This document shows positions 13,924-38,433 of a stretch of 64,000 nt of DNA, in pieces. The position numbers were made by a program, and so were the translations under genes. The stretch is from Dehalococcoidia bacterium (GTDB taxonomy: Bacteria; Chloroflexota; Dehalococcoidia; SM23-28-2; RBG-16-64-32). The stretch is taken from positions 105,662 to 169,661 of the forward strand of contig JBBEAZ010000024.1 in NCBI GenBank assembly GCA_040882565.1, given 5' to 3'. Position 1 is the stretch's first letter. Every line of letters begins with the position of its first letter. The notes below the pieces were generated by a model. That model saw only the letters and a list, made by a program, of their open reading frames with translations. It did not search any database and had not been told where the DNA came from.

Positions 13924-16900
13924 GTGCAGTCACGCGTTCAGCATCGCTCCGAGGCTGGCATCGACGAAGCCGCTACCGACAAGGTATTCGCGGCCGAGAC
14001 CGATATCACCTTCGTGCGCCTGGCGGTCATCGCGTTTAGCACCGTCGTTTATGTCTTCCTCTTCGACAAATCCGGTTCCATCCAGTGGCTTGCGTACGGC
14101 ACACTCGCCATCGCCTGGATCTACGGAGTGTCGGTGCTGGCGCTTCAGCCGCATCGGCGCCACCCGGCGCTGTTGTCGAGCTACTTCACATCGACATCCG
14201 ACGCAGCCCTGATCACAGCCTGGATCATCGCCACCGGCGGATACGATTCACCCTTTTACGTTCTGTGGTATGTATCGATCGTCGCAATTGCTTACCGATA
14301 CACCCCAAGGGAGACGATGATCGTCTCGTGTCTGTACGCGGCTTCGTATCTCGCTCTCGTGGCTGCCTTAGGTGAGACCTCTGACCGCACCACCGACTTG
14401 GTCGTTCGCATTGGCTATATCTTCCTCGTCGGTGCGATGAGTTCGTTGCTCTCGCGGGAGGCCCTTGGTCAGTCAAGGGCGAGAGTGGAGGCGCGCCGGG
14501 CGGCAGAGCTTGCGGCCGCCGCAGAAGCGCGGTTTCGCGAGCTCCTCGAATCGGCACCGGACCCGGTCATCATCGTGAACGAGCAGGGGTCTGTGGCTCT
14601 GGTCAACGCGGAGGCGGAGAGGGCCTTCGGCTACTCGAAAGAGGATATCCTGGGCGGCGGCGTGTTGATGCTCATACGCCAAACAGACCACGAGCGGGCG
14701 AGAGCCGAGTGGAGTGCATACACATCTGGGGTGCCAAGGCCGCAGACCATTGGTGGGATAGATCTCGTGGCGAGGCGAAAGGATGGAAGCGAGTTTGTGG
14801 TCGACGTCCGGCTGAGCCCGCTCAAAACCGAAGAGGGGATACTTTTCACGATCGTGATGCGCGACATCAGCGAGCGAAAGCGGGCCGAGGAGGCGCTCCA
14901 CGAAAGCGAGGCTCGCTTCCGTGCCCTCACCGAGAACGCTTCTGACTTTATCTTGATCCTTGACCCCCACGGCGTTCTTCAATACACGAGCCCATCCGTG
15001 GGCAGAATGCTAGGTTATGGCGAAGACGAGTTGTTAGGGAAAAATGGGTTCGAATTCGTACACCCAGATGACGCCTCAGAACTGGCGCAAATCCTCGCGA
15101 TGAGACTCCAGACGCGGGGGATCGGGGAGCCGATCGAATTTCGTGTTCTGCACAGCAACGGAGCCTGGCGCCTGTTCGAGGCGATCGGCAACTTCGACCT
15201 GCTGGACGACCCTGCGGTCGGCGGAATCGTCCTCAACGCCAGGGACATTACGGAGCGCCGACGGGCGGAGGAGGCATTGCGGGACTCCGAGACTCAGTAC
15301 CGTACCTTGGTGGAGGGCGCCAGCGACCACATTTTGATCCTTCAAAATGGGAAGACGGTATATCGAAACCCCGCATATGAAAGGCTGATCGGCTACAGCT
15401 CTACCGAAACAGCTGGCCGCAGCTTCCTGGAGTTCGTCGCCCCCGAGGACCGCGCCATAGTGGAAGAAAAATACCGGAAGCGGCTCCGGGGGGAACCCGC
15501 AACAGAGCAATATGAAGTGCACATCATGACCAGGGATGGCGGCAGGGCGCTTATGGAGGTTAAACCACGGGTCATCCAGTACCACGGTGAGCCAGCCACA
15601 ATGGTGCTGATGCGCGACATCACCGAGCGGAGGCAGGCCGAGGAGACGATCAGACGCCTCGCGCATCATGACGCGCTGACCGGCCTGCCGAACCGCATGC
15701 TCTTCGAGGACCGCCTCAACGTGGCTCTGGCCCAGGCGCGACGCAGCAAGGAGATGCTGGCCGTGCTGTTCCTGGACCTCGACCGTTTCAAGCTAGTGAA
15801 CGACACGATCGGCCACGCCGGAGGAGACGAACTGCTGCGGCAAGTCGCCGCGGACCTCGAAGAGGTAGTGCGCGACGGGGACACGGTAGCACGCAACGGC
15901 GGCGACGAGTTCACGTTGCTGCTTCCACGCATCCACTCCAAGCAAGATGCGATAGAAATCGCAGAGCGCATTCTGCGGGTCCTGGGCGAGCCCAAGTGTC
16001 TGCGTGGCCAGGAATTCACGGTCACGACGAGCATCGGCATCAGCATGTATCCCAAGGACGGCAGGACTGAGCAGGAACTGATGGCGAACGCGGACACCGC
16101 GATGTACCGGGTCAAGGAGCGGGGGCGCAACAACTACCAGCTGTACACGCCAGCGATGAAGGCAGACGTTCTTGGCCGGCTCGCTCTTGAGAGAGACCTT
16201 AGACGTGCTCTGGAGCATGAGGAATTCGTGTTGCATTACCAGCCGATCCTTGACGTGGGGACCGGCGAAATCGTCGCCGCGGAAGCACTCCTCCGCTGGC
16301 GGCACCCGACCCGCGGGCTGGTTTACCCGAACGATTTCATTCCGTTCGCCGAGGAGCACCGGCTCCTGGCCGAAATCGAAGAATGGGTCCTGTCCGAAGC
16401 GTGCAGGCAGAGGCGGCATTGGCGGCAGGAAGGATATCCCGAAGTCCGCATGAGCGTGAACCTATCGGCGCAGCAACTGCAGCGGAAGGAGTTGCCCGCC
16501 CTGGTGTCGCGGATACTGAAGCAATCCGGACTCGCCGGGGTGCACTTGCAGATTGAAATTACGGAAGGTGCGATGCTGGACAATGCCGACCCTGTCATCA
16601 GGACCCTCCGGCACCTGCGAGGGATGGGCGTGCGAATCTCAGTCGACGACTTCGGGACGGGATACTCGTCGCTCAGCTACCTTAAGAGATTTCCGATCGA
16701 CGAGGTGAAGATCGATAGGTCCTTCGTGAGAGACCTGACGGTGGATCCGAAAGACGCCACAATCGTCTCCACTATCATCACGATGGCCCACGACCTCGAA
16801 CTCGACGTCGTTGGCGAGGGGGTCGAATCAGAAGACCAGCTCCGCTTCCTCAAAGATCGCGGCTGTGACGCATGTCAGGGCTATCTGTTCAGTAAACCTG

Positions 16901-17001
16901 TGCCGGCAGCGGAGTTTGAACAGTTGCTCCGCGAGAGCATCGCGACAGTCGTCGGTGCACTCGGGGCAGGGGCCGGACGAAATAGCAGCCGCAACTCATA
17001 A
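13924..17001 (+). CDS. membrane sensor PAS(x4)-GGDEF-EAL c-di-GMP turnover protein
   Basis: 1025 aa. The N-terminus is multi-TM. Four PAS blocks follow. The GGDEF motif is RNGGDEFTLLL. The EAL domain has EALLRWRHP and DDFGTGYSSLSYLKRFPIDEVKID. Confidence 0.9.
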   Translation: MQSRVQHRSEAGIDEAATDKVFAAETDITFVRLAVIAFSTVVYVFLFDKSGSIQWLAYGTLAIAWIYGVSVLALQPHRRHPALLSSYFTSTSDAALITAWIIATGGYDSPFYVLWYVSIVAIAYRYTPRETMIVSCLYAASYLALVAALGETSDRTTDLVVRIGYIFLVGAMSSLLSREALGQSRARVEARRAAELAAAAEARFRELLESAPDPVIIVNEQGSVALVNAEAERAFGYSKEDILGGGVLMLIRQTDHERARAEWSAYTSGVPRPQTIGGIDLVARRKDGSEFVVDVRLSPLKTEEGILFTIVMRDISERKRAEEALHESEARFRALTENASDFILILDPHGVLQYTSPSVGRMLGYGEDELLGKNGFEFVHPDDASELAQILAMRLQTRGIGEPIEFRVLHSNGAWRLFEAIGNFDLLDDPAVGGIVLNARDITERRRAEEALRDSETQYRTLVEGASDHILILQNGKTVYRNPAYERLIGYSSTETAGRSFLEFVAPEDRAIVEEKYRKRLRGEPATEQYEVHIMTRDGGRALMEVKPRVIQYHGEPATMVLMRDITERRQAEETIRRLAHHDALTGLPNRMLFEDRLNVALAQARRSKEMLAVLFLDLDRFKLVNDTIGHAGGDELLRQVAADLEEVVRDGDTVARNGGDEFTLLLPRIHSKQDAIEIAERILRVLGEPKCLRGQEFTVTTSIGISMYPKDGRTEQELMANADTAMYRVKERGRNNYQLYTPAMKADVLGRLALERDLRRALEHEEFVLHYQPILDVGTGEIVAAEALLRWRHPTRGLVYPNDFIPFAEEHRLLAEIEEWVLSEACRQRRHWRQEGYPEVRMSVNLSAQQLQRKELPALVSRILKQSGLAGVHLQIEITEGAMLDNADPVIRTLRHLRGMGVRISVDDFGTGYSSLSYLKRFPIDEVKIDRSFVRDLTVDPKDATIVSTIITMAHDLELDVVGEGVESEDQLRFLKDRGCDACQGYLFSKPVPAAEFEQLLRESIATVVGALGAGAGRNSSRNS

Positions 17002-19762: not shown

Positions 19763-21415
19763 CTACTGCAGCTCGAAGCCCTCGTAGGCGTTGGCGGCGA
19801 TCTCGTCGCAGCGTTGGCGGTAATTGGGGGCGCCGCCGGCGTAGGCCATGAACGTGCGCTTCTGCCGGGTGGATACGTTGCTGTTGATGCCGGTCATCCA
19901 GGAGTCGACCTGGGTCAGGAGAAGGTACCGGCCGGTCTCGTAGACGTGTGCGGTCCAGGCGTCCTGCGCCTCCACGGTCGGTACGACGCGCTGGTGGTTG
20001 TGCTCTCGCATGTATGCGATGAGGCCGGCGACCCAGTCGACGTTTTGCTCGGCGCAGCGGGGGATGTTGCAGAAGGTGGCGGCGTTGTGCGGGCCGATCA
20101 GCGTCAAGAAGTTCGGGAACCCGGCGATCATCAGGCCGAGGTAGGTCTGCGGGCCGTCCGCCCAGGCGTCCCTCAGCGCGCGGCCGCCGACGCCGCGAAT
20201 GTCGATGCGGTCGAAGGCGCCGGTGATGGCATCGAAGCCGGTGGCGTAAATGATCATGTCGAAGGGGTATTCGGCGTCGCTGGTCTTGATGCCGGTCAGG
20301 GTGATGCGCTCGATGGGCGTCTCGTTGATATCGACGAGGGTGACGTTGTCCTCGTTGTAGACCTCGTAGTAGCCGCTTTCGAGAGGGACGCGGCGAGTAC
20401 CGAAGCCGTGGTTCGTCGGGATCAGCTTTTGCGCGACCTGCGGGTCGTTGACGCGCTCGCGGATCTTCCGGCTCATGAACTCCGTGATGGTGGCGTTGGC
20501 CGCAGGCACGACCATCAGGTCGCGGAAGTTGCCCATCCAGATGCCGAAACCGGGCTGGGCGTACAGCTTCTCGTAGAAGGCTTCGCGCTCCTCCGGGCTG
20601 ACGTCCATAGCGTGGCGCTCGTCAGCCTGGTGGATGAAGCCGCCCCACGTTTCTTTGCACAGGGCGAAGATCTCGGGATACCGCGACCTGATGCTCTGCA
20701 TCTCTTCGCGGCCGATGGGAGCGTTGCGGAGCGGGGCGCAGAAGTTAGGCGTGCGCTGGAAGACGGTGAGTGTGCCCGCTGTCTTGGCGACTTCGGTGAT
20801 GGTCTGCACGCCGGTGGCGCCGGTGCCGATCACGGCCACGCGCTTGCCTTCGAAGGTCACCGGTTCGTGGGGCCAGCGGGCTGTGTGGAACGATTCGCCG
20901 ACGAAGCTGTCGACACCGGGGATGTTCGGCATTGTGTAGGCGGACAACGGGCCGACTGCGGTGATGAGGAACTGCGCGCGGGCACGGCGGCCGTCGTCGG
21001 TCTCGATCTGCCAGCGGTTGTCGGCTTCGTCGAAGGTCGCGGAGAGGACGCGGGTGGCGAAGGTGATGTCGCGGCGGAGGTGCAGCTTGTCGGCGACGAA
21101 ATTGCAGTAGCGCAGGGTCTCCGGCTGGCCTGCGAAGTGCTCGCTCCACTCCCACTCCTGGAGGATCTCGTCGTCGAAGGAATAGCCGTACGTCCAGCTC
21201 TCGGAATCGAAGCGGGCGCCGGGGTAGCGGTTCCAGTACCAGGTGCCGCCGACGCCCGTGCCGGCTTCGAACACGCGCACCGAGAGGCCGAGGCTGCGCA
21301 GACGGTGGAGCTGGTACATGCCGGAGATGCCGGCGCCGATGACGATGGCGTCGTATTGCTCGACCGGTCCCTGGGCGCCGGCCGGACGTTCGGAGGTGGT
21401 GGTTTTGGCTGACAT
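19763..21415 (-). CDS. Baeyer-Villiger (flavin-containing) monooxygenase
   Basis: 550 aa. It has GAGISG FAD binding, the BVMO fingerprint FVGESFHTARWP, and a second Rossmann fold GTGATG. Confidence 0.9.
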   Translation of the reverse strand: MSAKTTTSERPAGAQGPVEQYDAIVIGAGISGMYQLHRLRSLGLSVRVFEAGTGVGGTWYWNRYPGARFDSESWTYGYSFDDEILQEWEWSEHFAGQPETLRYCNFVADKLHLRRDITFATRVLSATFDEADNRWQIETDDGRRARAQFLITAVGPLSAYTMPNIPGVDSFVGESFHTARWPHEPVTFEGKRVAVIGTGATGVQTITEVAKTAGTLTVFQRTPNFCAPLRNAPIGREEMQSIRSRYPEIFALCKETWGGFIHQADERHAMDVSPEEREAFYEKLYAQPGFGIWMGNFRDLMVVPAANATITEFMSRKIRERVNDPQVAQKLIPTNHGFGTRRVPLESGYYEVYNEDNVTLVDINETPIERITLTGIKTSDAEYPFDMIIYATGFDAITGAFDRIDIRGVGGRALRDAWADGPQTYLGLMIAGFPNFLTLIGPHNAATFCNIPRCAEQNVDWVAGLIAYMREHNHQRVVPTVEAQDAWTAHVYETGRYLLLTQVDSWMTGINSNVSTRQKRTFMAYAGGAPNYRQRCDEIAANAYEGFELQ

Positions 21416-21847
21416 TGGCTTTGCCTTCTGACTTAGGCTACCCGAGAATCTTGTTGAACGCAGCTGTTATCGCCATGCGTGGGTTCGCTGGAGGAGAGGG
21501 AACGCCACGCGATGAAGCGGTCAGGCCGCACCAGTATAGCGCCGTCCGGACCGATCTCTCGTGGCTACAGCTAGCTTTACCTGGCAGGACCATCGGCCGG
21601 CGATTTCAATCTGACTGGACCTGGCAATCGCGTTTTCAGGCCATCCTGGCCAGATGGCCGTTTGAACCAAACGCCCGCCTCGCGCGTTTGTATTGCTATG
21701 AAACCACGCAGACAGCGGAGCTTCCTCCGCTTGCTCGAGGAGCGATACAGCCGCCTGCGGCGGGGGAACAGCAGGGGCGGCGGGCCGGTGGTGTATCCGG
21801 TGGTCAACCGGCCGGCGGGCGCGCAGCCACTCGCCGGGGGGTTTGGG

Positions 21848-22216
21848 ATGAGCTTCGATCAGGTGGTTGTGGCCGGGCTCATCTTCGTCATGATCGCCTG
21901 GGCAGGGGCGGGCGCGGTCGCCTGGGGGGTTGTCGAGCTTTCGGGCGGCGGCGAGCAGGGAGAGCAGGGCGTCGCCGGACCGCAGGGCGAGCAGGGTGAG
22001 GCGGGCGATATCGGGCCGCAGGGCCCAGCCGGCAACGACGCGGCAATGGAAATGATAAAACGCCTCGGCGCCATGTTCGCGGTGCAGCAGAAGTCCGCCT
22101 TAAACGGCGGCGCGTTCGTCGCGTTCAACGACACTGACATCGGCGCGTGCGTAAAGTACATCATCACCGGGGAGCCGGGAGTCTCCGCTTGTCCGGGATT
22201 CTCGGGCGGCCAGTGA
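21848..22216 (+). CDS. small membrane-anchored collagen-like (G-x-x repeat) protein
   Basis: A TM helix (VVVAGLIFVMIAWAGAGAVAW) precedes GEQGEQGVAGPQGEQGEAGDIGPQGPAGN. Alternative upstream starts are at 21698 or 21662. Confidence 0.55.
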   Translation: MSFDQVVVAGLIFVMIAWAGAGAVAWGVVELSGGGEQGEQGVAGPQGEQGEAGDIGPQGPAGNDAAMEMIKRLGAMFAVQQKSALNGGAFVAFNDTDIGACVKYIITGEPGVSACPGFSGGQ

Positions 22217-22259
22217 GCGGCGGGCGGTGTTCCCCTACGAATATGCCTTGGTATAATCG

Positions 22260-22751
22260 GTGCGTATGACCTCGATATCACACGTCGAGAACGCCCAGGA
22301 GTACGCTCCCCCTCTCCCTTACGCCAGTCTTTCACTACGCATCGTAGCCACGATCCTTGACGGCATCTTTATCCTCTCCCTCGCCGCGCTCGTCAGTGCC
22401 GTCGCCGGATTCTACCTGCTCGCCCGCACGAGCTGGGGCGACGTCGATCCTTCCGACGAGGTCGCCGCGACCTCGGCTGCGATCCTCTGCGGATATCTGG
22501 TGCTCGCTCCTCTTTACTTCATGCTGCTGTGGTACTGGCGCGGCCAGACCCTCGGCCAGATGGCCGTTCGTATCGCCGTCACTGACCGCGACGGTTACCA
22601 TCTCCATTTCTGGCAGGCGATCCTGCGGATGATCCTCTGGCCGCTCAGCGTCCTGCCGCTGGGCATCGGCGTGACGACGATGTTCTTCGACCGCGAGCAC
22701 CGCATGCTACACGACATGCTCTCCGGCACCGTCGTCGTCGAGCTTCCCTGA
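22260..22751 (+). CDS. RDD family membrane protein
   Basis: RIVATILDGIFI .. three TM helices .. RDGYHLHF .. HRMLHDMLSGTVVV, the RDD signature arrangement. Confidence 0.7.
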   Translation: MRMTSISHVENAQEYAPPLPYASLSLRIVATILDGIFILSLAALVSAVAGFYLLARTSWGDVDPSDEVAATSAAILCGYLVLAPLYFMLLWYWRGQTLGQMAVRIAVTDRDGYHLHFWQAILRMILWPLSVLPLGIGVTTMFFDREHRMLHDMLSGTVVVELP

Positions 22752-23570
22752 GTGTCCGCGCTGCGTGCCGTCTCTGTCTGGATCGTCGCTTTTGCCCTGG
22801 CCGTCGCCCTGGCCGCACTCTTCGCCACCCTCACCGTTTACCAGCTGACCTCTGAGGACACCGGGGAGCGCATCCTCCGCCGCTCCATTGCCGCGACCAC
22901 CGACATCGATGCGGCTCTGCCGCGGATCGAGGCCGACCTCGACCGCCTGACGACCGGCGACTCGCCCGAGACGGCCACCGTTCCCAACTTCCCGATCCAG
23001 GCCGAGCTGACGCGCGAAGAGGCGACGACCCTGCGGGGCGGCGAACTGCGCGACGTGATCCTGGATCGCGCCGCGCACAAACTCTACACAGTTGGTGGTG
23101 ACGCCTGGACCGAAGGCGATCCACAGGCGAACCGGAACATCGAACGCGTCTCCACAACCGGCGCGATCGACTACGGTCTCGGCTTCGTCCGTGACTCCAC
23201 GAACGCCGTCTTCCTGGTCCTCGCCGTCATCCTCGCCGTTGTCGCCATCGGCATGACCGCGGTACTGCTGGTCGTTCTTCCCTGGGACATGCGGCTGCTC
23301 GGCGCGGGCAGTGTCGCCGTTGTAGCGGGACTGCCGGGGCTCGCCGCCGCTGTTGCCGTGCGTTTCGTGTTCCGCACCGCCGACGACGAAGGCGACCCCT
23401 TCGTCAAGGCGATGCTGGACCTCGGTGTCGATAGCATGTGGGTGCCCATTCGCAACTTCGCCGTACTCAGCCTCTTCGGTTTTCTGCTGATCATCATCGC
23501 TACCACGCTCCTCTGGTGGGGTGCGCGCCATCGCCCGGCAGGGAGTCCCGCGCTGGATACACAGAGCTAG
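22752..23570 (+). CDS. hypothetical polytopic membrane protein
   Basis: GTG start overlapping the upstream stop. N- and C-terminal TM segments flank a soluble loop. Confidence 0.6.
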   Translation: MSALRAVSVWIVAFALAVALAALFATLTVYQLTSEDTGERILRRSIAATTDIDAALPRIEADLDRLTTGDSPETATVPNFPIQAELTREEATTLRGGELRDVILDRAAHKLYTVGGDAWTEGDPQANRNIERVSTTGAIDYGLGFVRDSTNAVFLVLAVILAVVAIGMTAVLLVVLPWDMRLLGAGSVAVVAGLPGLAAAVAVRFVFRTADDEGDPFVKAMLDLGVDSMWVPIRNFAVLSLFGFLLIIIATTLLWWGARHRPAGSPALDTQS

Positions 23571-23598
23571 GACGCTCGTATAATTCCCGGGTAGAGAG

Positions 23599-23964
23599 AT
23601 GACCGGCGACGTGTTCTCGCGCAATCGATTCGTTCGCTCCGTAGCGAGGTTCATCTTGCTCGGCGTGCTGCTTCCTAACTTCGTCTATCTCGGCCACTGG
23701 ACCACGACCGGCACTGAAGCCCATGAGACGACCCACCATCACCGACAACCGGACGCGGCAGCAGACGACGCCCACACGCTCCACTGCCACACCGGCATCT
23801 CGAAGTGTGGCGGCGCGCAGGCGATGGTCGGCGCGCTCTGGGTTGGCGAAGACGCGGGTCTCTTTGCGCCGGATGACGCGCCAAAGCCTATCCTCCTAGC
23901 GCCGGCCGCAATCGCTCCGGAACCACCGACGCTCCTCCTCCTCCAACCTCCTAAGGCTGCCTGA
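23599..23964 (+). CDS. small His-rich membrane protein (HETTHHHRQ ... HTLHCHTGISKCGG), possibly metal-binding
   Basis: An N-terminal TM helix is followed by a His/Cys cluster. It lies upstream of the copper locus. Confidence 0.5.
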   Translation: MTGDVFSRNRFVRSVARFILLGVLLPNFVYLGHWTTTGTEAHETTHHHRQPDAAADDAHTLHCHTGISKCGGAQAMVGALWVGEDAGLFAPDDAPKPILLAPAAIAPEPPTLLLLQPPKAA

Positions 23965-24030
23965 CCGGCCTGCCTTATCGATTCCGGCGTCCAATACGGC
24001 GCCGGTGGCGTTATTACTTGAGGAGGACAG

Positions 24031-24564
24031 ATGAATCCACGAATCCGGCTGCTATTCGCCGGCCTCGCTGCCGTCGCGCTACTCGCCCTCGTCCTGGTCG
24101 CGGCCTGCGACGACGACGACGATGACAGCGGCGGCAGTGACAATAGCGCGGAACTGGCCGAGCTGACAACGCGCCTGGAGCGGGTCGAGGTGGAGACCGC
24201 GCTCAACACGCTTGACGCCGCCGCGTTCCACACCATCGACGACGAACTACAGGCCGCCAGCGAGATCCCGAGCGGCACTTCCGGTACGATCGAACGGGCT
24301 CATGCCATCGCTGCTGCGACCCACTGGCCGGACGACCTCAGCGAGCTGGCCGCGACGCTCGTCCAAACTATGGACGACTTCCTAGCGGCACTCGGAGCGG
24401 AGGACCTCGAGGCGTCAAAGGGTCTGGCGACAGACGCCCACGACGCCTGGCACGAGCTTCAGCATTCCGCGTACGACTGGGTCGCGGGCGAGGAGCTCGC
24501 CGACGAAGGAGAAGACGACCACGGCGCTGAAGAATCGCCCGCAGCCGAGGAAACCGGTAGCTAG
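24031..24564 (+). CDS. acidic lipoprotein, hypothetical
   Basis: It has a signal peptide with a lipobox (LVAAC) and a poly-Asp segment. Confidence 0.6.
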   Translation: MNPRIRLLFAGLAAVALLALVLVAACDDDDDDSGGSDNSAELAELTTRLERVEVETALNTLDAAAFHTIDDELQAASEIPSGTSGTIERAHAIAAATHWPDDLSELAATLVQTMDDFLAALGAEDLEASKGLATDAHDAWHELQHSAYDWVAGEELADEGEDDHGAEESPAAEETGS

Positions 24565-24565
24565 A

Positions 24566-25153
24566 GTGACGTTCGCGGCACGTGTGAGCGGGGTGGCGGC
24601 GCTGGCCGTCGCCCTGCTCGCGGCCGTCCTGGTTTCGGCGTCTGGAGCCTCGGCTCACGCGCGCTACGTCAGCTCGACACCGGCCGACGGCGCGACGGTC
24701 GCCGAGTCTCCGGCTCAGATCGAAGCCGTGTTCGCAGAAGAGATGGGGCGCAGCGGCGGACTGCCGACGATGGTGCTCGTCAACGAGTCCGGCGACGTGA
24801 TCGCCGATGGCCCCGTGCTCAACGACGCAGACCGCACGAAAATGACCCTCGACCTGCCGCCCTCGCTTCCCGAGGGGCGCTACACAGTGATCTGGCACAA
24901 CATCTCGGACGACGACGGGGATGAGGCCCAGGGCGCGTTCGTTTTCTTCGTCGGCGGCGGCTCTTCTCAGACTCCGGGCCCCTCCGACACCGCCGCGGCC
25001 ACGGCCGCGCCAACGACCGTCATTACCAACCCCGGCACGAGTGACGACGGCAGTAACGACATCCCGCTCTGGGCACTGATCGCAGGCGTTGCGGTCGGGC
25101 TCTGTGCCGGCGCCTCGGCAGGCGTCGTCCTCGGAAGCAGGCGCGACACCTGA
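24566..25153 (+). CDS. copC: CopC-family periplasmic copper-binding protein with a C-terminal TM anchor
   Basis: The mature N-terminus is HARYVSSTPADGATV. YTVIWHNISDDDGDEAQG parallels the CopC YxVxWxxxSxDGH motif. Confidence 0.75.
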   Translation: MTFAARVSGVAALAVALLAAVLVSASGASAHARYVSSTPADGATVAESPAQIEAVFAEEMGRSGGLPTMVLVNESGDVIADGPVLNDADRTKMTLDLPPSLPEGRYTVIWHNISDDDGDEAQGAFVFFVGGGSSQTPGPSDTAAATAAPTTVITNPGTSDDGSNDIPLWALIAGVAVGLCAGASAGVVLGSRRDT

Positions 25154-26202
25154 TGCGATTCCGGCGGCTGCTGCTCATGGTCTTCGTGATATGCCTTACC
25201 GCGGGCGTTTGGGCCTGCGGCAGCGGTGACGACGACGGCGGCGAGACGAACGCGCCGACTGGCACAGAGAGCGCGGCTCCCGGAGCGGCGTATATCCTCT
25301 ACCGGGACGCCAGCGGCAACATCATCGCCAGTAATCTCGCCACCGCCGAGACCTTCCGGCAGCCCGTCGACTTCGAATCTGAGGTCGTCATCTCTGCCAT
25401 GTGCTCTCCCGACAGCAAGCGAGTCGCCTTGCTCAAGCAACGTTTCACCGTCACTAACCGCGAACTCGTGATCCTCGGCGAAGACGCACCTGATGAAGAG
25501 ATACCGCTCTCCGCCGCCGTCCAGGGCATGGACTGGTCCCCTGATGGGACCCACCTCGTCTATACCGAATACGATGGCTTCGAAAACATCCACAAGGTGG
25601 GTATCCTCGACATCGCAGCGGGCGAGGCAACCGAGCTTGGTGCCGCAGACAACCTCGCCGGCTCGCCATCCTGGTCTCCCGACGGGTCGACCATCGCCTA
25701 CAACGTGCAGGACGCGATTGGCAACTTCTCGGATGTCTTGTTGCTCGACGCGTCGGGCGGGGAACCGCAGAAGCTCCAGATCGGCTCCGGCGGCCTCTGG
25801 TATGACCCAGAGTGGACTCCCGATGGCGAGTCGCTCCTCGTCTCCGGTATCAGCGAAGGCGAATCCCAGTTGTACCTGGTCAGTGCGGACGGCGGCGAGC
25901 CTGCTGCGATCACCAATTCCGACATCTTCAAACGCTCACCGGAGTACTCCCCGGACGGCGCTCAAATCGCGTACACCGGTTCGATCGTCATTCAGACCGT
26001 GTCCTTGAACGCACTCCACTCCTTTGGCATCTTCCTCATGAACAGCGACGGCAGCGATGAGCGCGCTTTGACCGCCGACCCGCGCCTCAACCCCGGCGCC
26101 GCGGTCGATCCCTACCTCGATGCCTTCCTGCTTGGCTGGTGCCTGCCCGGTCCCTGGCTGGACGATTCCTGGGAGCCGGTCGCGGCGCTGCCCACGCCAT
26201 GA
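25153..26202 (+). CDS. TolB-like beta-propeller lipoprotein (PD40/WD40-like repeats)
   Basis: Repeated WSPDG, EWTPDG and YSPDG blocks. Lipobox near the N-terminus (VWACGSG). Confidence 0.8.
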   Translation: MRFRRLLLMVFVICLTAGVWACGSGDDDGGETNAPTGTESAAPGAAYILYRDASGNIIASNLATAETFRQPVDFESEVVISAMCSPDSKRVALLKQRFTVTNRELVILGEDAPDEEIPLSAAVQGMDWSPDGTHLVYTEYDGFENIHKVGILDIAAGEATELGAADNLAGSPSWSPDGSTIAYNVQDAIGNFSDVLLLDASGGEPQKLQIGSGGLWYDPEWTPDGESLLVSGISEGESQLYLVSADGGEPAAITNSDIFKRSPEYSPDGAQIAYTGSIVIQTVSLNALHSFGIFLMNSDGSDERALTADPRLNPGAAVDPYLDAFLLGWCLPGPWLDDSWEPVAALPTP

Positions 26203-27167
26203 TCCTCCACATCGGCGGCGCGAGCACCGGCACCGTTCTCATTACCGTCATCGGCATCTTCCTCCTCATCTTCGCGATGAGTTTCGCCATCGGGCCGATC
26301 CCCGAAGGCAAGCGCCGTTACAGCCGCGCCTGGTGCACCGCCTGGCTGCGCGCCTCCACACCCAGGCTGATCATCGCCGGGACTTTTTCCGCATTGGTCT
26401 TCACCGGCTCCGCTCTCTCCGGTGACGGCAAGAGCGACGCGCAAATCGCCGCCGACTGCGAATCGGCCGTGACTCCGCTCACCGGTAACGCTGTTACAGA
26501 GCCGCGCCTGCTCGTCGCCATCTCCGGGACGCGTGACATCGCCACCGCTGCCCGGAACGGCGATCCCGGCGGCGCGCAGACGCTCTTCTTCACCACCGAC
26601 GCCCACAACGTCACGCACGACATCGATGCGCAGCTTCGCCTCGGCAGCCCGACGTTGGCCCAAGATCTCTGCATCAGCGTGGTCAAGCTCGAAAACGAGA
26701 TCGCGGGAGACCTTCGGCCAGCCGTGATCGCCACGGAATCCGACAAGATCGCCGGCTACCTGGACCAAGCGAGTGACGAAATCGACTTTGCGGCAGAGCC
26801 CTCGCCGGTGCCGGGAGCCTCTGGCGTCTGCGCCTATCCGATCGGCGCTGTCAGCGACCGTCCGCTCACCGAGGAACGCCTGCGGTCTGCAATCGCGGCG
26901 ATGCGCGAGGTCTCAGCGCTTGCCGGCGCCGGCGACGTGCCAGCCGCTGCCGAGGCCTTTGGCGGCGACGCGCACAACATCACCCATGACATCGACCTGC
27001 CGCTCCGCAACGCCGACCCGCAGCTCGGCGTCGACCTCTGCGAGAGCGTTCTCGAGCTCGAGCTCGAGTTCGGAGGTAAGCGAGACGCGGGCATCATCGC
27101 CGCCGAGGCGACGACTAGCGCCGGCCTCCTCGAGGACTCCGGGCGGGTGCTGGGCCTCCTGCGATGA
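26199..27167 (+). CDS. membrane-anchored protein with two tandem 'DAHNxTHDID' repeat domains, unknown function
   Basis: The start was set at ATG 26199 (MILHIGG.. TM helix). Internal repeats are FFTTDAHNVTHDIDAQLRLGSPTLAQDLCISVVKLENE and FGGDAHNITHDIDLPLRNADPQLGVDLCESVLELELE. Confidence 0.65.
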   Translation: MILHIGGASTGTVLITVIGIFLLIFAMSFAIGPIPEGKRRYSRAWCTAWLRASTPRLIIAGTFSALVFTGSALSGDGKSDAQIAADCESAVTPLTGNAVTEPRLLVAISGTRDIATAARNGDPGGAQTLFFTTDAHNVTHDIDAQLRLGSPTLAQDLCISVVKLENEIAGDLRPAVIATESDKIAGYLDQASDEIDFAAEPSPVPGASGVCAYPIGAVSDRPLTEERLRSAIAAMREVSALAGAGDVPAAAEAFGGDAHNITHDIDLPLRNADPQLGVDLCESVLELELEFGGKRDAGIIAAEATTSAGLLEDSGRVLGLLR

Positions 27168-29467
27168 CGCGGCGCGGGGTACTCCCTCCGCTTGTTCTCG
27201 CCCTCGTGGCGGTAGTGCTTGTGGGCTGGCTGTCGTCCGCCCCGGGCGCTTCCGCGCATGCCATCCTCGTGAGGGCGGACCCGGCGATCAACGGCCAGCT
27301 CCAGTCGTCCCCGGCGATCGTGACCGGGTTCTTCAGCGAAACGGTCGATCAGCGGCTCTCAAACATGGAGGTCTTCGCCGGCACCGGGGAACGCGTCGAC
27401 AACGGCGAGCTGACGTTCGGCCCGGAGCGCGAACGGATGGCCGTCGGCGTCGACGACGAGCTCGGCCCCGGCTTCTACACGGTGGTCTGGGAGACGCTCT
27501 CCGGCGTCGACGGCCACCTGCTGAGGGGCTCTTTTCCCTTCACCATCCTCAACGCCGACGGCTCGCAACCCAGCGGCCCGCGTTTCACCGCCGAAGGCAC
27601 CGGTTCAACCCTCAAGCCGCAGAACGTTAGCGTGAAATGGACCCAGATTCTCTTCTCGACATTACTCGTCGGCAGCCTTGCCTTCGTCGCCCTCGTCGCG
27701 AACCCGGCAGCGTCCGTCTCAAGCGAACCGGCCCGCGCAGAAGCCCGCCTCGCCGCGCGCCGCCGCGCCCTCAACACGGCCTGGATAGCGGTCGGCGGCC
27801 TCGTCCTCGTCGCCGGGGGCGAGCTGTTTGTGCAGGCCGACCAACTGGGCGGCCTCAAGTACATTGACGACGTCCTCAGCAACAACTGGGGTGAGCGATT
27901 CATCCAGCGCCAGGCCGTGCTGGTTTGTATCGCCTCTGTGCTTGTGATGGTGCCCGCCTTTGCTCGCGGTAATCGCGAACGCCTCGCCGATTCCGCGACC
28001 TGGGTCGCCCTCGCCGGTGGCCTCGGTTACCTCCTGCTCATCGCGATGGTCGGCCACGCCAACGCTGTGCCCGGCTCCTTCTGGGCAGTTGCCGCCGACT
28101 TCCTCCACCTCGTGGCCACTGCCGTCTGGGTCGGCATGCTTGTCCAGCTCGGCCTCTTCCTCCTGTGGGTGCGACAGGAGCCGGACGCACGCTCCGACCT
28201 CCAGACCGCTCACCTCGAACGCTTCTCGCTGATCGCCGCCACGAGCGTCGTCGTTCTCCTCGCGACCGGCACCATTAACGCACTCGTCCAGGTACCGAGC
28301 TTCAACGCCCTGGTCGACACGGCATACGGGCGGGCGCTGCTCATCAAGCTCGGCGTCGTCACTACCGTTCTTGGCGTGGCCGGCGTCAACGCGTTCTATT
28401 TGCGCGAACGCACGATCGAGGAAGCCGAAGCTCCGGAGACTGGTTCAAGAGTCCGTCATTGGCTTCGGCGCGCCGTGTGGGCGGAGGCGGCTTTGGGCAT
28501 CGCAGTCATGCTCGCCGCCGCCATTCTCTTTCAGTACCCGACGTCGCGCCAGGCGGAGGACGCCGAACGGGCGGCCGAGGAGGCCTCGCGCACACAGGCG
28601 GTGGTGGGCTATGACGAGATTCAGCCCGCGGGTGACCTCACCGTCAACCTCACGATCTCTCCCAACGCGATCGGCAACAACTCCTTCCGAGTGTTCCTCT
28701 TCCCGCAGCAGGGTGGGGACATTGGCGACATCCTCCGCGTGCGCCTCCGCTTCGTGCCGCCGTCCGGGGACGCTGCCCCGTCGGAGATCGACATGGAGCC
28801 CGCCGAACTGACTGCGTACCGCGCGGTCGGCCCCTTCATCAGCGAGCCCGGCAGCTGGGTCGTCCACGTCGACATCCGCCGCAGCGGCGCCGACGACATC
28901 ACGGCCGATTTCCCTGTGGCGATTGACTCCCCGGGCGGCGGTGGTCAGTTCGATCTGCCTCTCGCCTCAGGAGGCTGGCTCACGGTCGGCGCCATTGGTC
29001 TGCTGGTCGCCGCGTTGCTCCTCGCTGCCTGGTCGCCACGGCTGCCGGAGCTTCCGGCGCCCGGCCCCCGGCTAATGCGGGTTGGCACCGCGGCGTTCAC
29101 GGTGATCGGCACCGGAGTGATCGCGATCAGCCTGCTGCCGGGGGAAGCCGAGACGATCGGCAACCCGATCGCCGCCGATCCACAGTCGATTGCGATGGGT
29201 CGCTCGTTATACACGGCGAACTGCCAGCAGTGCCACGGCCCGGACGGGCGCGGCGACGGGCCGGTGGCGCGTGACCTGGAGACGCCGCCCGCCGACTTCC
29301 GCATCCATCTCCCCTACCATAAGGACGAGTTCTTCTTCCACGTCATCAGCAACGGTCTGACCGTGATGCCCTCCTTCGGCGACCGGCTCACCGAGGATGA
29401 GATCTGGCACCTGATAAACTTCCTGCAATCGGAGTTTGGGATTGACGCTCAAGAGCCCGGCAGCTAG
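27164..29467 (+). CDS. copCD: CopC-CopD fusion with a C-terminal cytochrome c domain
   Basis: The N-terminus is CopC-like (HAILVRADPA ... YTVVWETLSGVDGH). A multi-TM CopD-like core follows. The C-terminus has CQQCHG (CxxCH) and a downstream Met, typical of a mono-haem cytochrome c domain. Confidence 0.85.
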   Translation: MTRRGVLPPLVLALVAVVLVGWLSSAPGASAHAILVRADPAINGQLQSSPAIVTGFFSETVDQRLSNMEVFAGTGERVDNGELTFGPERERMAVGVDDELGPGFYTVVWETLSGVDGHLLRGSFPFTILNADGSQPSGPRFTAEGTGSTLKPQNVSVKWTQILFSTLLVGSLAFVALVANPAASVSSEPARAEARLAARRRALNTAWIAVGGLVLVAGGELFVQADQLGGLKYIDDVLSNNWGERFIQRQAVLVCIASVLVMVPAFARGNRERLADSATWVALAGGLGYLLLIAMVGHANAVPGSFWAVAADFLHLVATAVWVGMLVQLGLFLLWVRQEPDARSDLQTAHLERFSLIAATSVVVLLATGTINALVQVPSFNALVDTAYGRALLIKLGVVTTVLGVAGVNAFYLRERTIEEAEAPETGSRVRHWLRRAVWAEAALGIAVMLAAAILFQYPTSRQAEDAERAAEEASRTQAVVGYDEIQPAGDLTVNLTISPNAIGNNSFRVFLFPQQGGDIGDILRVRLRFVPPSGDAAPSEIDMEPAELTAYRAVGPFISEPGSWVVHVDIRRSGADDITADFPVAIDSPGGGGQFDLPLASGGWLTVGAIGLLVAALLLAAWSPRLPELPAPGPRLMRVGTAAFTVIGTGVIAISLLPGEAETIGNPIAADPQSIAMGRSLYTANCQQCHGPDGRGDGPVARDLETPPADFRIHLPYHKDEFFFHVISNGLTVMPSFGDRLTEDEIWHLINFLQSEFGIDAQEPGS

Positions 29468-29966
29468 CACCTTTTTCTCCCGCCGCCGGCGTGCGCAGGC
29501 GGCGCGCCAGGACGCCCTTCCGGACTGGGTCTGGGGCGCCGGCCTGGGCGTTCTCGTCCTGATCTTCGTCGGCGCTTTCTTCTTGGTTCGCCAGGTCAGC
29601 GGCGGTGGTGGTGACGATACCTGCGACAAGGCGCTCGTTCCCCTCGGCCAGAGCGAGATCAGTGCCGACGCGTTCGTCACTGAGGAAGCAGCGCTTACCC
29701 GCGTCATCGACTTCCTGAACGGAGGCGATCGCCAGGCGGCGGAGGCCGCTTTCTTCGGCCCCGCTCACAACTTCACCCACAATGTCGACCCGGAAGTCCG
29801 TGAGAAGGACGAGAGCCTCGCCAGAGACCTCTGCCACGCCGTCGTTACCCTCGAGGACGACCTCGCGACCAACGGTTCGAACCAGGCAATCGCCGCAGAG
29901 GTGGACCGAGTGCGCCTACTGTTGCGTGACATCGCGGAGACCCTCGGCTACCCTCGACCCGGATAG
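29436..29966 (+). CDS. membrane-anchored protein with one 'AHNxTH' domain (paralog of the 26199-27167 repeats)
   Basis: A TM helix is followed by FFGPAHNFTHNVDPEVREKDESLARDLCHAVVTLEDD. The start codon is uncertain because the gene overlaps the copCD 3' end. Confidence 0.55.
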   Translation: MGLTLKSPAASTFFSRRRRAQAARQDALPDWVWGAGLGVLVLIFVGAFFLVRQVSGGGGDDTCDKALVPLGQSEISADAFVTEEAALTRVIDFLNGGDRQAAEAAFFGPAHNFTHNVDPEVREKDESLARDLCHAVVTLEDDLATNGSNQAIAAEVDRVRLLLRDIAETLGYPRPG

Positions 29967-29976
29967 GAGCAGACTA

Positions 29977-30765
29977 GTGGGACAACTTGACGGCAGAGTC
30001 GCGATCGTGACAGGCGCCAGCCGCGGCATTGGCAAGGAGATCGCCGTGCTCTTCGCCGGCGAAGGCGCGAAGGTCATCGCCGCCGCGCGTACGGAGCACG
30101 AAGGCGACCACCAGCTCCCCGGTGGCATCCACGTGACAGTCGACGAGATCCGTCGTAATGGCGGCGAGGCGACCGCTGTCCGCGCCGACGTCTCAGACCC
30201 CAAGGAGATCGAGCGTCTCGTCGCTACGACGCGCGACACCTATGGACCGGTTAGCGTGCTTGTGAACAATGCTGCCCTGACCTACTACCTGCCGATAAAG
30301 GACTTCCCGCTCCGGCGCTTTCAGAAGATGATCGACGTCGACCTCACCGGGCCCTTCCTCCTCGCCCAGGCGGTAGTTCCCGACATGCTGAACGCCGGCC
30401 ACGGGCACATCATCAATATCTCTTCGCGCGCCGCCTTTCACCCCGAAGGGCCGCCATACGAACTGCCACCGCGCGGCGGCACCGTTTACGGCCTGGTCAA
30501 GGCCGGCATCGAGCGTTTCAGCAGCGGCCTCGCGCACGAGCTGTACGATTCCGGGATCGCCGTCAACTCCCTCGCCCCGACGGGCATCGTCGCCTCACCC
30601 GGCGTCCTCTTCCACAAGCTCATCCAGAGCGGAGACGACCCGCGCGCCGAGCCGATTGAGTACATGGCAAGCGCCGCCCTCATCCTTGCCACCTGTGACG
30701 CGAAGACGCTAACGGGGCGCATCACCTTCAGCCAGCCGCTCCTCAAAGAACACGGCCTTCTGTAG
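29977..30765 (+). CDS. SDR family short-chain dehydrogenase/reductase
   Basis: GTG start after GGAG. TGASRGIG Rossmann motif and NNAA..Y...K catalytic region. Confidence 0.85.
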   Translation: MGQLDGRVAIVTGASRGIGKEIAVLFAGEGAKVIAAARTEHEGDHQLPGGIHVTVDEIRRNGGEATAVRADVSDPKEIERLVATTRDTYGPVSVLVNNAALTYYLPIKDFPLRRFQKMIDVDLTGPFLLAQAVVPDMLNAGHGHIINISSRAAFHPEGPPYELPPRGGTVYGLVKAGIERFSSGLAHELYDSGIAVNSLAPTGIVASPGVLFHKLIQSGDDPRAEPIEYMASAALILATCDAKTLTGRITFSQPLLKEHGLL

Positions 30766-30767
30766 CG

Positions 30768-31190
30768 TCAGCCTGACGGCTCAGCGCCCTCGTTCCCGAC
30801 GATCCGCCCCTCAGCGTCGGTCACCAGCCGTCCCTTGCTCATGTCCAGCATCACCAGGACGTTGGCGAACGGGTCCATCACCACGGCGCACAGCCCAATC
30901 TGAATCTCGAACGGCCCCCTGATCAGACGACCGCCGGCGACGACAAAGCGCTCCACAGCCTCACCTACCGACTCCACCAGCAGGTCCGTCTCAGCTTCCG
31001 GACGCTCTGTTTGCAACACCAACTCGCTGTCGCCGCCCGGCATCCGTAGTCCGGCTGCCGTCTCGGAACGCCAGACGAGTTCGTGCCCCAGTGCGTCGCG
31101 GTAGAAACGGAGCGCCGCGTCGAGGTCATTTACAGACAACTGGTAGCAGTCGACCTTAACGAACAGTGGATATTTCGGCGCCTCACTCAT
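30768..31190 (-). CDS. VOC family (glyoxalase/bleomycin-resistance fold) protein
   Basis: 140 aa with the beta-alpha-beta-beta-beta pattern and a conserved HELVW. Confidence 0.75.
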   Translation of the reverse strand: MSEAPKYPLFVKVDCYQLSVNDLDAALRFYRDALGHELVWRSETAAGLRMPGGDSELVLQTERPEAETDLLVESVGEAVERFVVAGGRLIRGPFEIQIGLCAVVMDPFANVLVMLDMSKGRLVTDAEGRIVGNEGAEPSG

Positions 31191-31302
31191 CGCCGCATCA
31201 GTATACGGCGCGTCTTAACCATCCCTCTCTCCTCATAGGGCAACACACGCGTTGCCCTGCCGTCATCCGTTATGGAAAGCGCTCAAGAAGGAGACCCGCC
31301 CC

Positions 31303-32271
31303 ATGAAAGTACCAGGAAAGCTGATCGTTGCCGCCTGCGCAGCGACCGCCGCCATCTTCGCCGTAGTGATCGCCGCCGGCCCCGCTGCTGATACTACATC
31401 GGCGACGACGATCCTCGATTCGGAGGAACAGATCTTCGTTACGCTGATCAACGACTATCGCGCGCAGAACGGCAAAGGCCCGCTACTCGTCGATGCCAAT
31501 ATCACGGAAGCCGCCCGGTGGATGGACGCCGACATGGGCGCCTACAACTACTTCAGCCACACCGACCACCTTGGACAAAGCCCCTGGACCCGCATGTGCA
31601 ACTTTGGCTACTGCTGGTCTACGCCCAAGGGCGAGAACATCGCCGCCGGCTATACGACTGGCCTCAGCGTCTTCAATGCCTGGAAGGCGTCTTCCGGCCA
31701 CAACGCCAATATGCTCAACGGCAATTTCAAGGTGATGGGCATCGACCGCACCTACACGGCCGGCAGCACCTACGGCTGGTACTGGACGAACGACTTCGGC
31801 GGCTACATCCCGCCCGCCGGTCCGACCAACACGCCGGCGCCGAGTAACACGCAGGCCCCCACGGCCACACCAACGCCATCGGCGGCGCCTACAGCCACTC
31901 CGGCCCCGACTGCCACTCCGGCCCCGACTGCCACTCCGGTGCCGACTGCCAGCCCTACGCCGACACCGCCACCCGGCTGCACGAATGACACCGACTGCGA
32001 TGGCTTCCTGAACAGTGTCGAGGCCGTGATGGGCACGGACCCCGTCAAGCGCTGTCCGACGACCGTCCTGGCCAATGATGAGAACCCTGACTCCTGGCCG
32101 CCGGACTTCGACGACAACCGCATGGTGAACATCTCGGACGTGCTCAGCTACAAGCCGGTGTTCGGGACCGGTGGGTACAGCGGGCGCTATGACCTGAACG
32201 GCGACGCGCTCATCAACATCATGGACGTCAACACGATCAGGTTCATCTTCGGGTCCACCTGCACGCCGTAA
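31303..32271 (+). CDS. secreted CAP/SCP/PR-1-like domain protein with Pro/Thr linker and C-terminal dockerin-like module
   Basis: ATG 31303 after AAGGAGA. Signal peptide. The CAP region has HTDHLGQ .. GENIAAGY .. GHNANML. The linker is APTATPAPTATPAPTATPVPT. The C-terminus has paired DxNxDxxxN-like loops (DTDCDGFLNSVE, DLNGDALINIMDVNTIRFIFG). Confidence 0.8.
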   Translation: MKVPGKLIVAACAATAAIFAVVIAAGPAADTTSATTILDSEEQIFVTLINDYRAQNGKGPLLVDANITEAARWMDADMGAYNYFSHTDHLGQSPWTRMCNFGYCWSTPKGENIAAGYTTGLSVFNAWKASSGHNANMLNGNFKVMGIDRTYTAGSTYGWYWTNDFGGYIPPAGPTNTPAPSNTQAPTATPTPSAAPTATPAPTATPAPTATPVPTASPTPTPPPGCTNDTDCDGFLNSVEAVMGTDPVKRCPTTVLANDENPDSWPPDFDDNRMVNISDVLSYKPVFGTGGYSGRYDLNGDALINIMDVNTIRFIFGSTCTP

Positions 32272-37136: not shown

Positions 37137-37275
37137 CGCTTATCGACCTCGGGAGTTTATGAGGGGCGGGCAGGCCTGATCTGATGGGCGAATAATCACT
37201 GACTCGCAGTTTTACGCGCGGATACTTCATACGAGCATAGCGCAGCCTGTCTTCGGTATACCAATTTTATCGCAG

Positions 37276-38432: not shown

Positions 38433-38433
38433 C

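Follow-up and report, generated by a model that had tools for sequence, protein, structure and literature searches.

Introduction

Whether a copper importer may carry its own reductant is the question raised by a cluster of seven genes (g1-g7) within a 64,000-nucleotide (nt) stretch of contig JBBEAZ010000024.1 from a Dehalococcoidia bacterium, hereafter termed the window. CopC and CopD proteins are by now accepted as importers in E. coli and B. subtilis, and publications from 2025/2026 call both the transported oxidation state and the source of the reductant unknown; for YcnJ-dependent copper supply it is stated as unknown whether Cu(II) reduction is enzyme-catalysed at all (PMC13344008). The sixth gene of the cluster, g6, encodes a fusion of CopC, CopD and cytochrome c, which is predicted to put haem c on the same membrane face as the Cu(II)-binding CopC domain and hence is a testable candidate for the redox step. 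That the cluster handles copper as a CopC/CopD module and that its haem domain is functional is regarded as highly probable, and a role in import rather than in resistance is favoured with moderate confidence. According to the more specific reading, the module serves copper acquisition in aerobic Dehalococcoidia and has at its core a YcnJ-type importer that gained its own haem c redox centre; this reading is put forward tentatively, as a serious possibility on which doubt prevails by little.

Architecture and conservation of the fusion protein g6

Within g6 a signal peptide is followed by a CopC domain, a CopD domain with eight hydrophobic segments (within residues 161-460), a YtkA-like domain, two further transmembrane (TM) helices and a class I cytochrome c domain (Table 1), whereby the topology was derived from a simple hydropathy scan. 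The initial annotation had considered CopC and a CopCD protein to be recognisable in the cluster, which is borne out by matches to PF04234 in g3 and g6 and to PF05425 in g6. Residues described here as invariant in g6 were read from an alignment of 36 sequences spanning 29-72% identity. The CopC domain, which matches the structure of YcnJ CopC (9C14) with an E-value of 7e-8, possesses an invariant Cu(II) triad of H32, D116 and H118, with H32 being the first residue past the ASA cleavage site. Likewise invariant are H298, D312 and H315 of the CopD domain, of which H298 and H315 align with H135 and H154 of E. coli YebZ, residues whose mutation lowers or abolishes copper uptake (PMC11923076). By inspection, the CopC domains of g3 and g6 hold two to three scattered Met residues and no MxxM-type cluster, and as a Met-rich Cu(I) site is thus lacking, both look like the Cu(II)-only type (C0-1). 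Scores against NCBIfam copper_CopC (NF033814; 59.6 and 51.5 bits, cut-off 95) and copper_CopD (NF033808; 102.5 bits, cut-off 195) fall below the respective cut-offs, hence the window proteins are homologues and not equivalogs of the Pseudomonas proteins.

The region following CopD aligns unbroken with the PF13115 domain of the homologues P0107 and P0114 (P0107: 35 bits, cut-off 25.9); when taken alone it yields a weak match to FixH only (E 0.019), meaning that it is divergent and lies under the Pfam threshold. With a YtkA-like domain following CopC and CopD, g6 is probably of the YcnJ type. The loop between the two subsequent TM helices is Arg-rich and, as read from the sequence, fits the positive-inside rule. 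These helices are predicted to return the chain to the outside, whereby the CopC, YtkA-like and cytochrome c domains would share the outer face, a topology that agrees with what haem attachment requires.

The proposal that the CopCD protein carries a C-terminal CxxCH-type cytochrome c domain holds, as the CQQCH motif is accompanied by matches to PF13442 and PF00034 and by an invariant axial Met. The expected conservation of the motif in orthologues was found as well: the g6 search returned 188 homologues, and CxxCH is kept in 103 of the 120 listed clusters, once in each and at the same relative position, while the other 17 either lack the C-terminal domain or are fragments, so that every homologue having this domain retains the motif. 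Retention extends to homologues with as little as 29-30% identity and to the cultured Tepidiforma thermophila, and C687, C690, H691 and M735 are invariant, as are H715 and H719 of the nearby HLPYH motif. With all its copper ligands the fusion is conserved across a whole bacterial class.

The nearest solved relative of the haem domain is CytC552 of Thioalkalivibrio paradoxus (9VR0, E 1e-19; 7O9U, E 2e-19), aligning over 91 residues without gaps, whereby CytC552 His83 (numbering checked through Arg95) aligns with g6 H715. The pair H715/H719 is shared with CytC552 but absent from the third PDB alignment and therefore does not represent a general cytochrome c feature. CytC552 was reported to be the electron partner of a tri-copper thiocyanate dehydrogenase and to possess an exposed haem with a midpoint potential (Em) near +160 mV, and its His83 was proposed to serve as relay from the enzyme's copper to the haem propionate (PMC9456337). 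In Thioalkalivibrio a CytC552 homologue, copCD and the copper enzyme are induced together (PMC5744179, PMC9456337), an unfused counterpart of the association in g6.

Partner proteins of g6

In the stand-alone CopC protein g3, the CopC domain follows a signal peptide and is connected by a Pro/Thr-rich linker to a membrane anchor at the C-terminus. Within its metal site the N-terminal His and the Asp are kept and the second His is changed to Asp, with all orthologues reading DG[DE]; in the alignment with its best PDB match, CopC 6NFQ (E 2e-10), the ligand His accordingly faces an Asp. As a consequence of this replacement of the second His ligand by Asp/Glu, g3 is taken to have a variant site and not that of a canonical C0-1 CopC.

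The following gene, g4, encodes a possible lipoprotein which had been described as a TolB-like propeller. The PD40 propeller part of this description stands, whereas TolB itself was ruled out, given a TIGR02800 score of 95.3 bits versus a cut-off of 343 and PDB matches covering the propeller only (residues 127-308); moreover, no tol or pal genes are present near g4. A copper propeller of the thiocyanate dehydrogenase type was also rejected, because g4 has only three His residues. The gene is kept between CopC and g6 in four related loci (L001, L006, L010 and L011).

The view that the remaining proteins are not standard cop components proved right, in that no Pfam, NCBIfam or PDB sequence match was obtained. 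They fall into three candidate new accessory families without family assignment in any library searched, i.e., the AHN family (g5 and g7), g2 and g1. The two AHN proteins are homologous to each other (hhalign probability 99.7) and share a conserved core of an N-terminal Cys, H-N-x-T-H-[D/N], Leu-Cys and Glu. In g5, for which 56 homologue clusters were obtained, none with a Pfam match, C87, H136, H140, D141, C158 and E165 of the first domain and C211, H259, H263, D264, C281 and E288 of the second are invariant, and the AlphaFold2 model (predicted local distance difference test, pLDDT, 87.7) has two helical bundles after the TM anchors. The single-domain protein g7 (74 homologue clusters, again none with Pfam) ends in a conserved LGYPRPG and was modelled as a TM helix with a four-helix bundle (pLDDT 86.2); its likelier start, judged from the sequence, is TTG 29442, which follows GGAG at 29431-29434. 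The family has no PDB sequence relative and is rare, with 184 representatives at E <= 1e-3 among 1.84 billion proteins. One homologue, P0380, is a CopC-CopD protein with an AHN-like C-terminal domain, and this fusion ties the AHN family to CopCD. In L008 (124-5794) the P0380 gene comes after those of a histidine kinase and of two response regulators, the second of which has GGDEF and HD domains; this may be a regulatory context. An assignment of AHN to the imelysin/EfeO M75 family was ruled out, as sequence similarity and the HxxE motif are both absent.

The lipoprotein g2 comprises a domain of about 120 amino acids (aa) with an invariant FH...WP...D...HxxxH pattern, which may form a 3-His metal site and for which no Pfam or PDB match was found. 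Homology to AHN was not detected, neither with the single sequence nor with the profile (hhalign probability below 1). The domain still adjoins CopC and g6 where g6 identity is down to 32-35% (L011) and occurs in three tandem copies in L012, making g2, as judged by sequence, a deeply conserved partner of g6. In g1, for which Pfam and NCBIfam gave no family match, G32, H33, W34, H59, H62 and H64 are invariant in an alignment of seven orthologues, with the TM helix ending in GHW; the gene is present in L001, L002, L006, L010, L011 and L012.

The accessory proteins are modular, as documented by several variants: a protein of 532 aa in which three g2 domains in tandem are joined by a C-terminal 'HIHVTVDG' domain (L012, 7768-9366), a CopC-like protein of 318 aa whose second domain is His-rich (HIEHVHVG...AVHAG; L010, 6372-7328) and a 327-aa CopC with an extra 'HYHIYLD' domain (L002, 3646-4629).

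Gene linkage across genomes

Twelve distinct g6-type loci were compared, and a CopC gene precedes g6 in all of them, while an AHN gene follows g6 in nine. The order of the window, i.e., RDD gene, membrane protein gene, g1, g2, CopC, PD40, AHN, g6 and AHN, recurs in L001 (g6 50% identical) and in L010 (50%), where the SDR, CAP, thiolase and glyoxalase genes at the flank match as well, and L002 (56%) differs by being without g2 and PD40. In L006 (46%) the order is g1, g2, CopC, AHN, PD40, g6 and AHN, in L004 (44%) it is g2, CopC, g6 and AHN, and L003, L005 and L007 (44-45%) have CopC, g6 and AHN only, amid unrelated genes of acyl-CoA metabolism. L011 (35%) holds a g1-like gene, g2, CopC, PD40 and g6, and L012 (32%) g1, the gene for the three-g2-domain protein, CopC and g6, hence g1 and g2 are retained at the greatest divergence. 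In Tepidiforma thermophila (L009; g6 39% identical over a local segment) CopC and g6 overlap by 4 nt. The concern that homologues might be associated with unrelated functions is thereby removed, as in other genomes, too, the unusual genes have CopC and the CopCD-cytochrome c gene for neighbours. A split cytochrome c gene beside cytochrome-less CopCD paralogues was not found.

Proposed mechanism and alternatives

The suggested mechanism assumes that Cu(II) would initially be caught outside the membrane by anchored binders, namely the CopC g3 and probably also g1 with its His/Cys motif and the helical, His-rich g2, g5 and g7, the new families thus presumably having copper as their substrate. Next, Cu(II) would be passed to the His-Asp-His site of the g6 CopC domain, where the outward cytochrome c of g6, fed by the respiratory chain and with its His pair located by the haem, may reduce it to Cu(I), the electrons flowing from haem to copper. 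Finally, Cu(I) would enter the CopD channel via H298 and H315 and would supply cytoplasmic and membrane needs, with haem-copper oxidases as presumed target enzymes. The standard potential of the Cu(II)/Cu(I) couple is +0.15 V and is shifted by the ratio of the Cu(II) and Cu(I) affinities, from which it follows that thermodynamics would permit Cu(II) reduction, provided that there is a tight acceptor for Cu(I). Under copper limitation, YcnJ was reported to support the Qox and Cta oxidases by means of its CopC His and CopD His residues (PMC13344008). The cupric-reductase step by the haem domain, which would be a form of the redox coupling suggested in the initial annotation, is advanced with some reservation, as an idea that is believed slightly less than it is doubted. 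Somewhat more guarded is the view of its fullest form, in which g6 acts as a self-contained, respiratory-chain-coupled cupric reductase and importer, with the His pair serving copper docking and relay and with CopC-bound Cu(II) being reduced right where the CopD channel opens, and is fed by a copper relay made up of AHN, g2 and g1; this form is possible, with doubt outweighing belief.

Several observations weigh against this mechanism. The YtkA-like domain shows no conserved His, Met or Cys in the 36-sequence alignment and thus keeps no obvious copper ligand, meaning that no Cu(I) acceptor site was identified outside CopD. The sole characterised relative of the haem domain, CytC552, takes electrons from Cu(I), i.e., in the opposite direction. 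No locus links oxidase, Sco or cytochrome c maturation genes to the module. Part of the conservation seen in close relatives is due to common ancestry, since L010 shares genes with the window beyond the cluster. The distant AHN proteins P0286 and P0373 come from short contigs on which no CopCD is visible, and Foldseek comparison of the g5 and g7 models with the PDB gave no match at E <= 0.001, leaving a generic four-helix bundle.

As CytC552 receives electrons from Cu(I), a Cu(I)-oxidising role in detoxification stays alive. Here, the cytochrome c would oxidise toxic Cu(I) outside the cytoplasm to Cu(II) and pass the electrons to a terminal oxidase, thereby replacing a multicopper oxidase, while CopC and the His-rich proteins would sequester Cu(II). 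Beside the precedent of an electron-accepting CytC552 opposite a Cu(I) centre (PMC9456337), it is in favour of this role that resistance operons were the first source of CopC and CopD (PMC8689200) and that many extracytoplasmic His-rich binders would suit buffering. By established redox chemistry, the oxidation of free Cu(I) by a haem of +160 to +250 mV is downhill. However, a copper efflux ATPase, a multicopper oxidase, a copper regulator (CsoR, CueR or CopRS) or an outer-layer component was found in none of the 12 loci. A resistance-type island does exist in the lineage (L014, 1448-11841), where MerR, DUF305/DUF4142, VKOR and a cupredoxin-HMA P-type ATPase accompany P0109, a CopCD paralogue of 875 aa; this paralogue is without cytochrome c and its island, judged by gene content, appears to be of the classical resistance type, unlike all cytochrome-fused loci. 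Furthermore, the CopD histidines critical for import are invariant, and the CopC domains belong to the Cu(II)-only type, which is linked to contexts other than resistance. Considering this, detoxification is held to be unlikely, and we infer import over export, uptake being better supported than efflux.

Alternatively, g6 may be an oxidase-assembly factor, whose haem domain would have no action on copper and would either dock it on the cytochrome c binding face of subunit II of a haem-copper oxidase or act as a tethered electron donor, with CopC, CopD and the YtkA-like domain delivering copper to CuA/CuB. This is reminiscent of C. glutamicum, in which a C-terminally anchored CopC and the CopD-containing CtiP act in the assembly of the bc1-aa3 supercomplex (PMC9145763); g3 has the same kind of C-terminal anchor, and respiratory complexes of monoderms commonly contain fused cytochrome c domains. 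Yet oxidase genes adjoin the module in no locus, the YtkA-like domain is without a conserved ligand, and the invariant H715/H719, instead of being general to cytochromes c, is shared with the copper-enzyme partner CytC552, so that an assembly role is considered rather improbable.

It is thought to be a little more improbable still that CopC and the CopCD-cytochrome c protein alone form the functional unit, with g1, g2, g4, g5 and g7 being unrelated envelope proteins which adjoin it through shared ancestry. Tepidiforma with its pair of CopC and g6 only, the synteny of close relatives far beyond the cluster and the distant AHN genes without visible CopCD would all be expected in this case. On the other hand, overlapping start and stop codons join g3 through g7, AHN follows g6 in a differing genomic context (L003-L007), and the g1 and g2 domains persist with altered copy number where g6 identity has dropped to 32-35%; P0380 joins CopC-CopD to an AHN-like domain, and the proteins in question all possess His (and Cys) motifs that are invariant and, by prediction, lie on the outer face. 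Another metal or substrate, for example iron as in EfeUOB, which likewise couples a redox step to metal import and would render the CopC/CopD names misleading, is very improbable given the invariant CopC Cu(II) triad and CopD copper-import histidines, the missing imelysin HxxE motif and AHN fold matches no better than those to generic four-helix bundles (PsbQ, p130Cas, talin).

Organisation of the cluster and its surroundings

The seven genes had been described as co-directional with tight or overlapping junctions, and the open reading frame (ORF) listing of the window confirms all of them, yet the run they belong to is longer, comprising ten co-directional genes (22260-30765). Conserved homologues exist for every one of g1-g7, which identifies them as real genes and not chance ORFs. 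A gap of 1 nt separates g2 and g3, and g3 and g4 overlap by 1 nt. An ATGA overlap joins g4 and g5 if the latter starts at ATG 26199, the start used in the 322-aa NCBI protein P0121 (100% identical to g5). The overlaps at g5/g6 and g6/g7 amount to 4 nt and 26-32 nt, and the overlapping junctions are compatible with co-transcription. A composition described as atypical applies to the gene content only, as an atypical base composition was ruled out by a cluster guanine-cytosine content of 0.64-0.68 lying inside the window range of 0.55-0.70. The window stems from a metagenome-assembled genome of an uncultured Dehalococcoidia bacterium; the proteins P0001, P0121 and P0177, from metagenome-assembled genomes at NCBI, are 99-100% identical to window proteins.

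Table 1. Positions of the g6 domains and motifs, of the cluster genes and of the flanking genes of the ten-gene run within the window.
Feature	Position	Strand	Characteristics
RDD-family membrane protein	22260..22751	+	163 aa; PF06271 E 7e-22; first gene of run
Polytopic membrane protein	22752..23570	+	272 aa; ~4 hydrophobic segments; abuts RDD gene
g1	23599..23964	+	121 aa; N-terminal membrane anchor; extracytoplasmic GHW...HxxHCHx(4-5)C...PP[KR]
g2	24031..24564	+	177 aa; predicted lipoprotein; lipobox VAAC; acidic tail
g3, CopC	24566..25153	+	195 aa; PF04234 61.1 bits (cut-off 23.3), E 2e-16
g4, PD40 beta-propeller	25153..26202	+	349 aa; PD40 E 8e-11
g5, AHN	26199..27167	+	322 aa; two N-terminal TM helices, two tandem AHN domains, each C...DAHNxTHDxD...LC...E
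g6, fusion protein	27164..29467	+	767 aa
g6 CopC domain	27257..27547	+	residues 32-128; PF04234 49.2 bits (cut-off 23.3), E 1e-12
g6 CopD domain	27632..28543	+	residues ~157-460; 8 TM; PF05425 74.7 bits (cut-off 32.1), E 9e-21
g6 YtkA-like domain	28601..28948	+	residues ~480-595; FixH/YtkA fold; extracytoplasmic; colinear with P0107 PF13115
g6 extra TM helices	28973..29137	+	residues ~604-622 and 637-658; hydropathy peaks
g6 cytochrome c domain	29156..29467	+	residues 665-767; PF13442 53.3 bits (cut-off 27), E 4e-14; PF00034 38.3 bits (cut-off 21.3), E 4e-9
g6 CQQCH haem motif	29222-29236	+	C687, C690, H691; axial Met M735
g6 HLPYH pair	29306-29320	+	H715/H719; within PPADFRxHxPxHxD motif
g7, AHN	29436..29966	+	174-176 aa; one TM anchor, one AHN domain; C63...PAHNFTHNVD...LC133...E140
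Short-chain dehydrogenase (SDR)	29978..30765	+	adh_short E 4e-43; GTG start 29978, 11 nt past g7 stop

Membership of the two genes upstream of g1 in the module is uncertain. The RDD gene precedes the cluster also in L001, L002 and L010, which share synteny beyond the cluster too. The 272-aa membrane protein, without a match in Pfam or NCBIfam, has orthologues in L001 (44% identity) and L002 (43%), with an AHN paralogue in its place in L010. Downstream, the SDR gene is probably co-transcribed with the cluster, judging from the spacing; it follows g7 also in L002 and L010 but not in L001 or L003-L007, and a functional tie to the copper module is doubtful. A promoter scan was uninformative (one promoter-like site versus 1.0 expected); a perfect TATAAT hexamer at 23580-23585, 14 nt ahead of the g1 ATG and without a -35 match, could be a run-internal promoter. 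Rfam matched nothing across 21000-31500, and regulator or oxidase genes adjoin the cluster neither in the window nor in related loci.

Ahead of the run, 43 nt before the RDD gene, lies an ORF of 184 aa (21662-22216, +) with a collagen-like Gly-X-Y run (GEQGEQGVAGPQGEQGEAGDIGPQGPAGN) and no Pfam match. Beyond it, at 31252-32271 (+), a secreted CAP/SCP-domain protein is encoded which has a long Pro/Thr-rich linker and C-terminal Asp-rich repeats (DCDGFLN...DLNGDALINIMD) resembling calcium-binding dockerin-type repeats, and whose gene is syntenic in L001 and L010. The remainder of the window is ordinary chromosome, including genes for ATP synthase, MreB, MurA and several oxygenases. Regions 11411-13643 (-), 19763-21415 (-) and 13924-17001 (+) hold genes for a luciferase-like monooxygenase, a TauD dioxygenase, a Baeyer-Villiger-type flavin monooxygenase and a 1025-aa PAS-GGDEF-EAL protein, and a gene content so rich in oxygenases agrees with an aerobic lifestyle of Dehalococcoidia of the SAR202-like kind. 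Two large ORFs (47374-49908, +, 844 aa; 37227-38453, -, 408 aa) are without a Pfam match at E <= 1e-5.

Significance and comparison with known systems

Annotation pipelines name g6 homologues 'CopD family protein' or mention CopC, CopD and cytochrome c jointly; as these domains are labelled, the fusion architecture is already visible in databases. No paper describing or interpreting the CopCD-cytochrome c fusion was found in a literature search outside of which the main CopC-family survey, which may mention the fusion, was located. If the suggested mechanism holds true in its fullest form, g6 would be the first identified enzymatic Cu(II) reductant for CopD-type import, and Tepidiforma thermophila, being cultured, carries the minimal pair of CopC and the fusion. 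The three unannotated His/Cys-motif families are candidate extracytoplasmic metallochaperones in the Chloroflexota, where metal trafficking is essentially unstudied.

With the plasmid-borne CopABCD/PcoABCD systems of Pseudomonas and E. coli the module shares homologues of CopC and CopD. In contrast to these systems, a multicopper oxidase, CopB/PcoB or CopRS is present neither among the ten genes of the run nor among the neighbours in the 12 loci, and its CopC is without the Met-rich Cu(I) site. EfeO/EfeM and imelysin (M75), which are among the top fold matches of AHN, also combine extracytoplasmic helical bundles with redox-coupled metal import, but AHN possesses HNxTH[D/N] plus a distant Glu instead of HxxE, and unrelated four-helix bundles reach the same scores as these matches.

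A membrane-bound reduction of Cu(II) to Cu(I) was proposed for CcoG of Rhodobacter capsulatus in the biogenesis of cbb3 oxidase (PMC13344008). General Pfam and NCBIfam scans gave no CcoG-like match for the cluster genes. CcoG is a cytoplasm-facing iron-sulfur protein, whereas the task proposed for both would here fall to a haem c that lies outside the cytoplasm and is part of the transporter itself. The extracytoplasmic CopC of C. glutamicum (Cg1884) is anchored by a C-terminal TM helix as is g3, and is found, together with CtiP, in a monoderm-type envelope (PMC9145763); there, however, CtiP combines CopD with Caa3_CtaG and not with cytochrome c, and a PCuAC protein is encoded in the neighbourhood. 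The likeness to Thioalkalivibrio CytC552 comprises the HxPxH motif, the electron exchange between cytochrome and copper site and the co-induced copCD, and it ends where CytC552 is a soluble, separate protein whose partner is a tri-copper enzyme instead of a transporter, with electrons flowing from Cu(I) to haem.

Two import systems can be compared as well. E. coli AZY, which mediates copper uptake and not tolerance (PMC8689200, PMC11923076), likewise combines CopC and CopD with a third small extracytoplasmic protein possessing two conserved cysteines, and the YebZ residues H135 and H154 align with g6. AZY differs in consisting of separate polypeptides without a YtkA or haem domain, and its YebY is a DUF2511 protein of MlbQ-like fold, unrelated to the AHN four-helix bundle. 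With B. subtilis YcnJ, g6 shares the order of an N-terminal, extracytoplasmic CopC of the Cu(II)-only type, an 8-TM CopD and what in g6 is probably an extracytoplasmic YtkA-type domain, and in both systems a separate membrane-anchored Cu(II) protein is encoded alongside (PMC13344008, PMC12362106); YcnJ function was found to require the conserved CopC and CopD histidines (PMC13344008, PMC12362106). In g6 the YtkA-like domain is the divergent one, and two more TM helices and the cytochrome c domain are added; the partners are a second CopC, AHN, g2, g1 and PD40 instead of the DUF1775 protein YcnI, and no YcnK-like regulator is present. In terms of known systems, the module most likely is CopC/CopD copper import of the YcnJ-like kind, to which a haem domain and three candidate families have been added.

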